From Alphaproteobacteria bacterium (lineage in GTDB: Bacteria > Pseudomonadota > Alphaproteobacteria > RF32 > CAG-239): 64,000 nt of DNA. The notes under the pieces are model-generated. The model searched no databases. It saw only the letters and a list, made by a program, of their open reading frames with translations, and had not been told where the DNA came from. The stretch covers positions 41,349 through 105,348 of the forward strand of contig JBGULQ010000005.1 in NCBI GenBank assembly GCA_045116295.1, read 5' to 3'. The translations under genes and the position numbers were made by a program. This document shows, one piece after another, positions 34,372 to 42,224 of this stretch (positions within the stretch are counted from its first letter, which is position 1; every line of letters begins with the position of its first letter).

Positions 34372-34470
34372 TGCTATGGAGGGCATCGGGTCAAGCGTTC
34401 GCCAACCCGGTCAGGTTCGGAAGAAAGCAGCCGTAACGAACCAGCCTGAGGTCGGTGTTCCTCCGCCTTT
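34372..34470 (+). ncRNA. ffs: signal recognition particle RNA (4.5S, small SRP RNA)
   Basis: The conserved domain IV GGUCAGGUUCGGAAGAAAGCAGCC matches the GUCAGGUCCGGAAGGAAGCAGC consensus and carries the GGAA tetraloop. It lies immediately upstream of dnaX, as in the ffs-dnaX-ybaB-recR cluster. The ends are approximate. Confidence 0.7.
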
Positions 34471-34488: not shown

Positions 34489-36165
34489 ATGGCAGAAGAA
34501 GAAAAACAAGATAACTACGTAGTTTTAGCACGAAAATATCGTCCGCAGAATTTTGAAGATTTACTCGGGCAAGACGCTTTGGTACAAACTCTGACCAACG
34601 CCATAAAATCAAATCGCTTGCACCATGCATACATTTTAACCGGAATTCGTGGCGTAGGCAAGACCACCACTGCCCGTCTGATTGCTAAAGCCCTTAACTG
34701 CATTGGCCCTGATGGCAAAGGTGGACCGACAACGCATCCCTGCGATGTTTGTGAAAACTGTAAATCAATCGCCGCCGGTCGCAATATTGACGTTTTAGAG
34801 TTGGATGCTGCATCACGTACCGGTGTTGATGATATCCGCGATATTTTGGACGGTGTTCGTTACAAACCGACAAACTGCCGATACAAAATATACATCATCG
34901 ATGAAGTTCATATGTTGTCAAAAAACGCCTTCAATGCCTTGCTCAAAACTCTTGAAGAGCCGCCGGCACATGTCAAATTCATCTTTGCTACAACCGAGAT
35001 TCGCAAAGTTCCGATCACTGTCCTTTCTCGTTGTCAACGATTCGATTTACAACGTTTGCAAATTGACGACCTTATGAAGTTGTTCAACAAAATTGTTGCT
35101 GCCGAAAACCTCAAAGCTGATGAAGAAGCTCTGCATATGATTGCTTCTGCCGCAGATGGTTCGGCTCGTGACGGTTTATCATTGCTGGATCAAGCAATTT
35201 CGCTCGGCAGCGGCAAGGTTCGCACAGACATTGTTAAAGAAATGCTCGGCATGGCCGACCGTGGTCAGGCATTTGAAATTTTTGATAATCTCATTAACGG
35301 CAATATGAACGACCTGCTCAAAAAACTCCAAGATGTATATAAAAATGGCGCAAATCCGACAGCAATACTTAATGACCTTATAAACATAACTCATACATTA
35401 ACCAAAGTTTTGCTTATACCGGCATTCTTAAACGACGAAAAAATTTCTGAAACCGAACGTGAATTTTTCAAAAACACTGCAGCAAAAGCCAACGTAGCAC
35501 TATTGTCCAGAGTTTGGCAGATGTTGATAAAAGGTTTAAATGAAGTGCAAAACGCTCCCGTGCCGATAGATGCGCTTGAGATGGTTTTGATACGTATAGC
35601 TTATTCAGCCAACCTACCAACTCCGGCAGAACTGCTTGAGAGCGTAAAAAAAAAATCTAGCCTAAACGCTGCAGATACTCAAGGTTATCGACCATCGCGT
35701 CCACAAATTGAAGTACGGACACCTAAAAATGCACAACAGACATCGTTTGATAAAATAACGGATTTCATCCGTTACCTTGAAGATAACAAACAACCACGTT
35801 TGGCATATACACTGAAAAACGACGTTGAGGTAGTCGATTTTAGCGATGGTGTCATGCGTTTTAAGGCCACAGACCATATTTCTGCAGACACGGTGCTTAC
35901 CATTGACAGATTTTTGGAGAATTCGACTGGCAAAAAATGGAAGACGGAACTGGTTCCCGGCGAAGTCATTTTAAGTATTGCCAACATTGAAAATGCTCAA
36001 AAAGAAGCTGATCGTAAAAACGTTGCTGACAATCCTTTGGTCAAGGCTATTCTTGATGAATTCAGAGGAGCAAAAATAGAAACATTGACACGAAAAATTA
36101 TTACAGACGATGAAGGAAACTTTGAAGATAATAATGAAGAATTTAATGGGGAGGATTTTAACTGA
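34489..36165 (+). CDS. dnaX: DNA polymerase III subunit tau (gamma/tau)
   Basis: An AAA+ Walker A GIRGVGKTT and the zinc module CDVCENC are present. 558 aa. Confidence 0.95.
   Translation: MAEEEKQDNYVVLARKYRPQNFEDLLGQDALVQTLTNAIKSNRLHHAYILTGIRGVGKTTTARLIAKALNCIGPDGKGGPTTHPCDVCENCKSIAAGRNIDVLELDAASRTGVDDIRDILDGVRYKPTNCRYKIYIIDEVHMLSKNAFNALLKTLEEPPAHVKFIFATTEIRKVPITVLSRCQRFDLQRLQIDDLMKLFNKIVAAENLKADEEALHMIASAADGSARDGLSLLDQAISLGSGKVRTDIVKEMLGMADRGQAFEIFDNLINGNMNDLLKKLQDVYKNGANPTAILNDLINITHTLTKVLLIPAFLNDEKISETEREFFKNTAAKANVALLSRVWQMLIKGLNEVQNAPVPIDALEMVLIRIAYSANLPTPAELLESVKKKSSLNAADTQGYRPSRPQIEVRTPKNAQQTSFDKITDFIRYLEDNKQPRLAYTLKNDVEVVDFSDGVMRFKATDHISADTVLTIDRFLENSTGKKWKTELVPGEVILSIANIENAQKEADRKNVADNPLVKAILDEFRGAKIETLTRKIITDDEGNFEDNNEEFNGEDFN
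35646..35655 (+). other. A10 homopolymer inside dnaX (candidate slippage site for the gamma subunit)
   Basis: The run covers codons 386-389 (V-KKK). The -1 frame reads ATC TAG (one codon, then stop). The +1 frame reads AAT CTA GCC TAA (three codons, then stop). Confidence 0.5.
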
Positions 36166-36485
36166 TGATGAATATGCAAAGCCTGATGAAACAAGCACAA
36201 ATGATGCAAAAAAAGATGAATGAAGCCCAAGAAAAATTGGCGCAAAGTGAAGTTACCGGCGTTAGTGGCGGTGGTATGGTAAAAGTTACCATTACCGGAA
36301 AAATGGCAACCAAAAAAGTTGAAATAGACAAGTCTTTATTAAATCCGGAAGAGTCTGACATTCTTGAAGACTTGATTGTAGCGGCCTGCAATGATGCACA
36401 AAACAAAGCCGAAAACATGATGAATGAGGGCTTAAAAGATGTTACCGGCGGCTTGAATCTTGGCGGTTTAAAACTTCCTTTCTAA
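36165..36485 (+). CDS. ybaB: nucleoid-associated protein YbaB/EbfC
   Basis: It has 106 aa, a TGATG overlap with the dnaX stop, and a typical YbaB sequence. Confidence 0.9.
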   Translation: MMNMQSLMKQAQMMQKKMNEAQEKLAQSEVTGVSGGGMVKVTITGKMATKKVEIDKSLLNPEESDILEDLIVAACNDAQNKAENMMNEGLKDVTGGLNLGGLKLPF

Positions 36486-37090
36486 TGGTGATAACCATGG
36501 CAGGTCAAGATATCGAAAAATTGATAAAGCTAATGTCAAAATTGCCGTCACTTGGCACCAGATCGGCACGCAGAATAGTTTTGCACCTCATCAAAAAAAG
36601 AGATACGGCATTGCTCCCGCTGATTGATGCAATGCAGGGCGTTGCAAACAACATCAAAACCTGTGAAATATGTGGCAACTTCGATACATCTTCTCCTTGC
36701 TCGATATGTTCTTCTGAAAAAAGAGAAAAAAATATTATTTGTGTTGTTCAAGACGTAGCCGACTTATGGGCAATGGAACGCACAGGTTTTTATCATGGGC
36801 AATATCATGTTTTGGGCGGTGTTTTATCAGCACTTGACGGAGTTGCACCTGAGGACTTAAACATAGATTCGCTTTTTACCCGCTTGGAAGAAGAACCGAT
36901 ATCAGAAATTGTTTTAGCACTTCCGGCCACCATTGATGGTCAAATTACCTCGCACTTTTTGGTATCAAAATTAAAAAACAGCAACGTTAAAATCACCACA
37001 CTAGCACAAGGAATTCCGGTTGGTGCAGAGCTTGACTATATGGACGAAGGTACAATCCAACTGGCATTAAACTCACGCAAAGAAATGTAA
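36485..37090 (+). CDS. recR: recombination protein RecR
   Basis: The HhH motif, the C4 zinc finger CEICGNFDTSSPCSICSS, and a Toprim domain are present. The start is ATG at 36485 (TAATG overlap) or 36497. Confidence 0.9.
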   Translation: MVITMAGQDIEKLIKLMSKLPSLGTRSARRIVLHLIKKRDTALLPLIDAMQGVANNIKTCEICGNFDTSSPCSICSSEKREKNIICVVQDVADLWAMERTGFYHGQYHVLGGVLSALDGVAPEDLNIDSLFTRLEEEPISEIVLALPATIDGQITSHFLVSKLKNSNVKITTLAQGIPVGAELDYMDEGTIQLALNSRKEM

Positions 37091-41007: not shown

Positions 41008-42224
41008 ACCTGCGTAACCATATTATTTTTAATTTCGAAAAAATCCGCCTCCTTGCTTAAAGAAGTAAAAATATCTCGGTTTGTAGAAGTAATCCATGCC
41101 TGAAGCCCGAGATTTTTTATCTTGTCGAGCAATGCTTCGCGCTTTATATCATCGAGATGTGCCGCAATCTCATCAAGCAGCAAAACAGGAGCAAAACCCT
41201 GATACAAAATCTGGCATTTTGTTTGAGCCAAAATAATGCTTATCAGCAGAGATTTTTGCTCGCCGGTTGAACAAAGCTCTGCCGGCATATGCTTGCGCTT
41301 ATATGTAACCTTAAAATCCGTGCGATTTACTCCGTCAACATTATCGTTATACAAAACATTTCGTCGCTCGTTTTTTAGCTTATTAATATAAAAATCTTCG
41401 ACATCAACCGCCGGCATCTTATCAAGCATTTTTTCAATTACGCCGTCGAGTTCCACAATCACATTAGGAAAAACATCATCAGGCTCATTCTCAATAAAAC
41501 TATTCAGACGTGCAATTTGCTCTCGGCGTGCCGCAGCTATTGCCACACCGATGGCTGCCATATTTTCTTCGATTCCCTCCAACCATGCATTGTCTGCGCG
41601 CCCATTGGTGCTTTTAATCAATTGGTACCATTGTTTATAGAGATGCTCAAAATTTGCCGTTCTCTTAGCGTGTTCATTATCAAATGCAAAAACCAAACGA
41701 TCCAAAAAACTCCTACGTGGCTGTGATCCTCCTCTGAATAATCTATCCATTTGCGGAGTAAGCCATATTGCGGAGAGATAATGCCCCAACTCGCCTTGAG
41801 ATGGTGCTTTTTGCCCATCTATTTTTACGATTCTTTTGTTATAACCGCCGACATCATCATCTTCTTCTGATCTTGGAGTATTTTCGACAGCGGTGCCTAT
41901 TTCAAAATCTTCGCCGTTTTTATATACAGTAGCCGATACTGCCCAAGAACTGTTTGACGGCGCATAATCATTACCAACGACTGCAGGGGTAAATCTCCTG
42001 ATGTCCGTCAATCTTGCCCCTCTTAAACCTCTTCCCGGTGTTAAAAAGGATACTGCTTCTAATATATTTGTTTTTCCGCTTCCGTTTTCACCGGTAATAA
42101 TTATCGGGCGCAGGGTCGTATTCAGTCGCAAAAAAGCATAGTTCCTAAAGTCAGTTAAAGTCAGGCGTGTCACACCTGACTTTTTGCTGGTAACTGTCTG
42201 TATGTTTTGCGCTAAGCTGTCCAC
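41004..42224 (-). CDS. recF: DNA replication and repair protein RecF
   Basis: Walker A GENGSGKTN and the signature motif are present. It follows dnaN. Confidence 0.9.
   Translation of the reverse strand: MDSLAQNIQTVTSKKSGVTRLTLTDFRNYAFLRLNTTLRPIIITGENGSGKTNILEAVSFLTPGRGLRGARLTDIRRFTPAVVGNDYAPSNSSWAVSATVYKNGEDFEIGTAVENTPRSEEDDDVGGYNKRIVKIDGQKAPSQGELGHYLSAIWLTPQMDRLFRGGSQPRRSFLDRLVFAFDNEHAKRTANFEHLYKQWYQLIKSTNGRADNAWLEGIEENMAAIGVAIAAARREQIARLNSFIENEPDDVFPNVIVELDGVIEKMLDKMPAVDVEDFYINKLKNERRNVLYNDNVDGVNRTDFKVTYKRKHMPAELCSTGEQKSLLISIILAQTKCQILYQGFAPVLLLDEIAAHLDDIKREALLDKIKNLGLQAWITSTNRDIFTSLSKEADFFEIKNNMVTQV

Follow-up and report, generated by a model that had tools for sequence, protein, structure and literature searches.

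A conserved adenine run at the tau/gamma boundary of dnaX as a probable programmed slippage site in a clade of gut Alphaproteobacteria

The dnaX locus and its adenine run

The dnaX gene considered here, which encodes the tau form of DnaX, lies within a 64,000-nucleotide stretch of DNA (hereafter, the window) of Alphaproteobacteria bacterium (RF32; CAG-239), located at positions 41,349 to 105,348 of the forward strand of contig JBGULQ010000005.1 (assembly GCA_045116295.1). At the boundary between the portion of the protein shared by tau and a predicted shorter subunit, gamma, and the portion specific to tau, the gene contains a run of ten adenines (A10), which is very probably a programmed slippage site of some kind, given its sequence context and its conservation. 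The features of the locus are listed below, with the evidence for each one.

34489 to 36165, forward strand: dnaX open reading frame (ORF), encoding tau (ORF list; Pfam; alignment with the E. coli gamma/tau core)
34489 to 35643, forward strand: clamp-loader domains I–III, codons 1–385, common to tau and the predicted gamma (Pfam; 1jr3_A alignment of residues 9–380)
35646 to 35655, forward strand: candidate A10 slippery run, codons 386–389 (sequence; A9–A11 in 57 of 57 clade genomes)
35658 to 35660, forward strand: TAG stop in the extra-A or -1 frame (sequence; near stop kept in 56 of 56 relatives)
35663 to 35665, forward strand: TAA stop in the minus-A, two-extra-A or +1 frame (sequence; near stop kept in 56 of 56 relatives)
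35656 to 35751, forward strand: hypervariable linker found only in tau, codons 390–421 (alignments; predicted local distance difference test score, pLDDT, below 50 in the model)
35752 to 36081, forward strand: tau-only C-terminal domain DUF3646, residues 422–531 (Pfam E-value 1.7e-19; core pLDDT above 90 in the AlphaFold model)

The gene has 558 codons, and its zero frame encodes a tau of 558 amino acids (62.3 kDa), in a window with a G+C content of 38.4%. Pfam recognizes DNA_pol3_delta2 (residues 28–190), the ATPase lid (199–242), domain III (245–385), and DUF3646 (422–531) in this protein, and residues 9–380 match the crystal chains of E. coli gamma/tau (E about 1e-93), including 1jr3_A, which is gamma. 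Codons 386–389 read GTA AAA AAA AAA, which places the A10 at 0.69 of the length of dnaX, and it begins one codon past the end of the Pfam domain DNA_pol3_gamma3 (domain III, residue 385, profile position 142 of 143). Directly past the motif [VI]KKKS, which spans the run, the protein alignments have no conservation at all in the linker.

An additional A, or a -1 shift, leads to ATC and then TAG (35658–35660), resulting in a product of 390 amino acids (43.2 kDa) with the C-terminus SVKKKI. The loss of one A, or a +1 shift, leads to AAT CTA GCC and then TAA (35663–35665), resulting in 391 amino acids (43.3 kDa) with the C-terminus SVKKNLA, and this second frame is also reached by two extra A's. 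The window thus has an A-run of at least about nine in dnaX past the clamp-loader core, and a single tau ORF with near stops in both non-zero frames, which are features of the Thermus type, while the reversed, two-ORF layout, in which gamma is the zero-frame product and ends at the run, is absent, given that tau is in frame. An earlier note on this DNA had described the run, its codons, its relative position in the gene, and both out-of-frame stops, and had predicted proteins of ~62 and ~43 kDa; every one of these sequence details is borne out here, as are, by calculation, the two predicted sizes.

Both slipped products lack the C-terminal domain of tau, DUF3646. A fold search with the AlphaFold model returned E. 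coli tau domain V (5fku_E and 2aya) as the top PDB matches, with a probability of 0.99, weak E-values (4e-3 and 1e-2), and template modelling scores (TM-scores) of 0.35–0.46, while a search of PDB with the sequence of the 169 amino acids found only in tau recovered nothing meaningful. The likeness of the modelled domain to tau domain V of E. coli, which binds polymerase alpha, is suggestive only.

The run and its out-of-frame stops across the clade

The best 120 protein matches to the window DnaX (70–99% identity) all carry [VI]KKKS at the run, with no similarity beyond it, and the closest database proteins belong to gut-type Alphaproteobacteria that have not been cultured, with labels such as "Rhodospirillales" and "Azospirillum sp.". 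When a single genome per species was scanned, 80 dnaX loci were recovered, of which 56 belong to the clade of the window and 23 are more distant. Together with the window, the 56 relatives form a single monophyletic, long-branched clade of gut, rumen, and faecal metagenome-assembled genomes (MAGs), including Candidatus Scatocola, with DnaX proteins that are 55–76% identical to that of the window, and all 56 have the run at the homologous codon. Among the 57 genomes (window included), the run is A9 in 28, A10 in 28, and A11 in one, and is never shorter than nine, with A9 and A10 having interchanged several times on the tree. At this site, a run of at least nine was found in none of the 23 outgroups, which include Micavibrio, Sphingomonas, and Niveispirillum (44–60% best-segment identity). 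All the relatives are metagenome assemblies, and the genomes of the clade are related to one another, so that the counts and statistics given here overstate independence.

The longest invariant block in an alignment of 22 sequences is the run itself. Across the 57 genomes, eight columns of the run are 100% invariant, while the majority bases at the third positions upstream reach only 28–60%, and the synonymous sites flanking the run are saturated. The codon that precedes the lysines is GTA in 30 genomes, TTA in 19, and ATA in seven, with an A in the third position in 56 of the 57, and these three codons account for 16%, 26%, and 21% of their respective codon families in the same genes. The exception is L004, which has ATT at this codon, and in which the whole A10 has moved one base to the right. 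The clade genes use AAA for 79% of their lysines, and a series of two or three lysine codons would therefore often contain AAG by chance. The change from A10 to A9 occurs via AAA to AAC, that is, from lysine to asparagine, so the protein sequence is not what is kept. Judged from these alignments, selection is on the nucleotides of the run, and not on its amino acids.

The stops are conserved in the same way. The extra-A frame runs for 0–5 codons before a stop in each of the 56 in-frame relatives, and the minus-A frame for 1–6, with both of these near stops being reached through 19 distinct downstream sequences. The residue following the serine varies (S/E/D/N/K), and the codons always keep T-AG, T-GA, or T-AA in the -1 frame. 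Elsewhere in the same genes, the background chance of a -1 stop within five codons is 0.43, and the joint chance of both near stops is 0.14 per site. Given that the genomes are related, no exact P is claimed for the stops, although with as few as eight independent lineages the value would be about 1e-7. For a -1 ribosomal shift, a single stop would suffice, whereas both are kept here, and the Thermus dnaX has the same arrangement of two stops.

Seventeen of the relatives, in at least four places on the tree, have a second run in the tau linker (15 A10 and two A9), located 43–73 nucleotides downstream from the first (for example, L015 3720–3729, L006 3699–3708, and L025 3711–3720). This run reads GAA AAA AAA AAT in 14 of the 15 A10 cases, and also has near stops in both frames, with the extra-A frame stopping directly after the run in 12 of the 17 genomes. 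The second run, which is absent from the window, could raise the share of gamma or yield a second form of gamma.

The other genes of these genomes were used as a control, by resampling the synonymous codons in 265 other ORFs (238 kilobases, kb) of the same loci and the window. Runs of seven and eight A's on the sense strand are not avoided (156 observed vs. 129 expected for A7, and 41 vs. 45 for A8), and are followed by an abrupt drop, with no A9 (18.6 ± 3.5 expected) and no A-run of ten or more (9.7 expected). When A-runs and T-runs are counted together, there is one run of length nine, against 23 expected, and none of ten or more, against 14. The dnaX genes themselves have 73 runs of at least nine, and the drop at length nine coincides with the minimum run length kept in dnaX. 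A sharp drop of this type in the frequency of runs was read by Baranov et al. (2005) as selection against transcriptional slippage.

In the window, the A10 is the only homopolymer of at least nine nucleotides. The composition of the DNA leads to an expectation of approximately 0.4 A-runs of at least ten on each strand of a 64-kb stretch, and a lone A10 is unremarkable by count. A chance origin was thus rejected on the basis of conservation and context, rather than composition, and the conservation of the A10, its position, and its context are, from the comparison of these genomes, far beyond chance. The earlier note had placed a slippage site at the tau/gamma boundary, and had proposed the conservation of the run and the stops in relatives as a check; this proposal is supported by the outcome, with at least nine A's in 57 of 57 genomes and both stops in 56 of 56.

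Alleles of different run length in public assemblies

When the predicted gamma of 390 amino acids was used as the query, gamma-length ORFs were recovered from public assemblies which end exactly in the predicted slipped C-termini. The ending ...VKKKI, which corresponds to A11, is the most frequent (P0130, with 935 contigs and 1679 index blocks; P0128, P0129, and P0131, on 256, 111, and 44 contigs, respectively; and P0122), while A9 is represented by ORFs ending in ...VKKNLNQVP and ...VKKNLN, A12 by ORFs ending in ...VKKKNLNQVP (25 and 13 contigs), and A8 by ORFs ending in ...VKKI. The proteins of the off-frame alleles are P0122, P0124–P0125, and P0128–P0150. A check of the DNA found A11 on seven contigs of 62–253 kb from different human-gut cohorts (L083–L089), A9 on one contig (L082), and A10 in the species representative and ten other contigs, while two further species have A11 (L055 and L090). 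In all of these A11 loci, and in the A9 of L082, the layout is reversed, with tau being out of frame.

In a strain tree based on 3 kb of flanking sequence, A11 is found on two separate backgrounds, although the loci were fetched by exact protein identity, which biases this tree toward the clustering of the alleles. The 190 codons specific to tau are open in every off-frame allele, and the ratio of nonsynonymous to synonymous changes in the tau part is similar in the A11 strains (40/90, or 0.44) and the A10 strains (45/112, or 0.40). By this measure, the tau part of the A11 strains is under purifying selection. A11 looks commoner than A10 in one human-gut species, in which the index blocks number 1679 for P0130 and 75 for the in-frame P0082.

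Tau is the essential form of DnaX in E. coli, and the A11 strains must, by the same token, make tau through a shift, although a -1 ribosomal shift is unable to restore tau from A11. If real, then, the A11 alleles would constitute natural evidence of slippage that is efficient enough to supply the essential tau. With slippage near 50%, a change of one base can swap the dnaX product that needs the shift (Atkins et al. 2016), and the clade appears to have both states, tau in frame and gamma in frame, within a single species. The A-run may even act as a heritable dial of the tau:gamma ratio, with strains of A9, A10, A11, or A12, the missing product being supplied by RNA-level slippage, and a second A10 run being present in some subclades, although this is a tentative suggestion, with the chances falling somewhat against it.

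The probable level of the proposed slippage and its biological meaning

The mechanism that probably accounts for these observations is programmed slippage that gives rise to both tau and a gamma-like subunit, with transcription as the main level. In this process, the RNA polymerase would let the growing transcript slip into a new alignment along the template's T-run, releasing mRNAs with 9, 10, 11, 12, or more A's. The reading of mRNAs with the original ten A's would produce the full tau of 558 amino acids, while those that differ from A10 by a number that is not a multiple of three would be carried by ordinary translation into the TAG at 35658–35660 or the TAA at 35663–35665. The resulting gamma-like product would be made up of domains I–III followed by VKKK(I) or VKK(NLA), without the linker or the polymerase-binding C-terminal domain. 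The minimum of nine in the run favours the transcriptional level, given that seven A's would be enough for a ribosomal heptamer.

The closest parallel is the dnaX of Thermus thermophilus, in which transcriptional slippage at an A9, with stops in both frames, produces gamma as the short product (Larsen et al. 2000, as relayed in PMC1088944 and PMC5009743). The two systems share an A-run of at least nine in a single tau ORF, near stops in both non-zero frames, and no need for ribosomal stimulators. They differ in phylum, in the A10 being found here at 0.69 of the gene, directly past domain III, and in the tandem runs or off-frame alleles of some of the relatives. Slippage was demonstrated experimentally in Thermus, whereas here we infer from sequence that it occurs, that its level is transcriptional, and that the short product functions as gamma.

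The dnaX of E. coli, which, like that of its relatives, relies on -1 ribosomal frameshifting, is similar in the position of its site (about 0.67, compared with 0.69 here), in the addition of a single residue before the -1 stop, and in a gamma composed of domains I–III. It differs in having a seven-nucleotide A_AAA_AAG, an upstream Shine-Dalgarno-like sequence, and a stem-loop of -19.7 kcal/mol, none of which is found here, and a second out-of-frame stop plays no part in the E. coli system. Two-ORF dnaX genes with an A10, in which it is tau that needs the shift, have been predicted in the Chlorobi, Bacteroidetes, and Coraliomargarita (Antonov et al. 2013, PMC3711429), in a published set that includes no alphaproteobacterium. 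These genes also have the poly-A at the gamma/tau junction, and their reversed layout is shared exactly by the A11 relatives (L055 and L083–L090), whereas tau is in frame in the window, and both layouts coexist within one species of the clade.

In Blochmannia, a frameshift in the poly(A) of dnaX, found in B. vafer and inferred in B. floridanus, is tolerated through transcriptional slippage (PMC3017870). The off-frame genomic alleles at a dnaX A-run, with rescue presumed at the RNA level, are common to both cases, but that of Blochmannia is read as the erosion of a gene in reduced genomes, downstream from the gamma site, in contrast with the run conserved throughout the present clade at the domain boundary. 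In Caulobacter crescentus, which is of the same class, the same outcome is achieved by the processing of DnaX by ClpXP into tau and shorter forms of gamma (PMC5009743; bioRxiv 2022.11.10.516041), that is, post-translationally, rather than through a nucleic-acid signal. These sources agree with what the earlier note had said of E. coli (a -1 shift at A AAA AAG), Thermus (slippage at an A-run), and Caulobacter (proteolysis), and full-text searches of the literature returned no report of dnaX slippage in the Alphaproteobacteria.

A shift during translation, either as a -1 frameshift of the E. coli type on A_AAA_AAA or through the sliding of the ribosome on the poly(A), would give the same ...VKKKI product, and is the most plausible of the alternatives, though an unlikely one. 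The heptamer A_AAA_AAA is in phase in every member of the clade, and at the second run as well, the -1 frame closes one codon later, as it does in E. coli, and ribosomes are known from the literature to be able to slide along homopolymeric A, with termination at stops outside the original frame. Against this, a search for stimulators of the E. coli type found none around the run. The Shine-Dalgarno-like element upstream is not conserved in 22 aligned members, in which the 15 nucleotides upstream vary (TTGAGAGC, TTAAACGAC, CTGAAGGAA, and others), and RNAalifold found no conserved pair in the 66 nucleotides upstream. The 50 nucleotides downstream fold weakly, at -5.0 kcal/mol in the window, with a clade mean of -6.8, compared with -19.7 for the E. 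coli element, used as a control; the absolute energies and RNAalifold were preferred here to shuffle z-scores, which are insensitive (the E. coli stimulator itself has z = -1.1 in a 50-nucleotide window). The DnaX element of Rfam has no match here at the gathering threshold or at E-values of up to 10, and the only Rfam matches around the run are chance ones below the threshold (snoRNA, bxd, and rimP leader).

The heptamer also differs from the efficient A_AAA_AAG, being far less shifty in E. coli, where the sliding of the ribosome is robust at A11 and yields little product at A9 or A10. A translational shift would moreover be satisfied with seven A's and a single stop, but the run is never shorter than nine, the other frame has an equally conserved stop, and runs of seven or eight are not avoided in the other genes, while the tau of the A11 alleles lies beyond the reach of a -1 shift. 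Two outgroups have an in-phase heptamer just before the end of domain III, an A_AAA_AAG in L061, where the 25 codons shown contain no stop, and an A8 in L073, with a -1 stop after 14 codons. As an alternative signal, these heptamers are unconvincing, being found in only two of the outgroups, and they are possible precursors of the run, or the product of chance.

It is much less probable that the run is a by-product of a lysine-rich linker in an AT-rich genome, with gamma being produced by proteolysis, as in Caulobacter, or not at all, and the off-frame alleles being assembly errors or dying genes. AAA is indeed the predominant lysine codon, the outgroups also have lysines around the site, off-frame stops are common in AT-rich DNA, as the frequency of the -1 stop indicates, and the only alphaproteobacterium with a described route to gamma in the literature examined relies on ClpXP proteolysis. 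However, a by-product of this type would not be expected to retain its A's while the amino acids vary (K/N and V/L/I), with no substitutions in eight columns of 57 genomes in which the synonymous sites are saturated. Nor does it accord with the purging of such runs from all the other genes, the emergence of the second run at several places on the tree, the maintenance of both stops through 19 sequence solutions, or the purifying selection on the tau part of the A11 strains. The tau of the window ends in ...EEFNGEDFN, and processing by ClpXP of the Caulobacter type could coexist with slippage.

A hypermutable switch at the DNA level, with replication slippage toggling cells between tau in frame (A10) and gamma in frame (A9 and A11), is the least probable of these explanations, as, despite the presence of alleles from A8 to A12 in a single species and of A11 on two strain backgrounds, cells in a pure off state should be unable to persist without phenotypic slippage if tau is as essential as it is in E. 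coli, the alleles cluster by strain, rather than being mixed freely, and such a switch would add to RNA-level slippage, rather than replace it.

A number of observations do nevertheless weigh against programmed slippage at the level of transcription. The in-phase A_AAA_AAA makes some translational shifting possible, and the avoidance of runs of nine or more could stem from their instability during DNA replication, a process in which slippage at the run is evident from the A8–A12 alleles. A further caution, raised by Baranov et al., is that slippage seems to be suppressed in some AT-rich bacteria. The off-frame alleles could, in principle, be homopolymer errors of assembly, and the in-frame A10 of the well-sampled human-gut species lies predominantly on short contigs (below 10 kb in 72 of the 75 index blocks), compared with 10–200 kb for most of the A11 contigs. 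The short A10 contigs could reflect mixtures of strains that break the assemblies, or a sampling effect, and the view of the alleles as errors is opposed by their numbers, the long contigs, and their clustering by strain, although retrieval by exact identity itself favours clustering. The organism is also uncultured, and the relatedness of the clade genomes inflates the apparent strength of the conservation.

The genomic context of dnaX is the usual one, in the order SRP RNA (signal recognition particle RNA), dnaX, ybaB, and recR. The gene of the small SRP RNA (34375–34470, forward strand; Rfam RF00169, 67 bits) is directly upstream of dnaX and is the sole Rfam match in the window, in which ARAGORN found no tRNA or tmRNA gene over the whole 64 kb. 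The stop of dnaX overlaps the start of ybaB (TGATG, 36163–36167), as does the stop of ybaB that of recR (TAATG, 36483–36487), and these overlaps suggest translational coupling. Early termination at the gamma stops would keep ribosomes from reaching ybaB, and slippage might thus lower the output of both ybaB and recR. Among the relatives, three records labelled Lactobacillaceae (L013), Bacteroidaceae (L038), and [Ruminococcus] gnavus (L042) carry an alphaproteobacterial dnaX locus, and are probably mis-binned contigs or mislabelled MAGs.

Three routes are known to lead to a short DnaX (ribosomal frameshifting, transcriptional slippage, and proteolysis), and a clade of common uncultured alphaproteobacteria of the gut and rumen appears, on the genomic evidence, to use the slippage route, rather than proteolysis. 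The tandem runs and the switching between tau in frame and gamma in frame within a species may represent a novelty of degree. In hundreds of public assemblies of these bacteria, dnaX is split or truncated by gene callers, and these genes are to be read as cases of recoding, rather than pseudogenes, while the natural A9–A12 alleles provide a ready series for the measurement of slippage efficiency from pairs of metagenomes and metatranscriptomes. Slippage in this clade would also lend weight to the view that selection acts on gamma itself, and that gamma has been reached repeatedly by different means.

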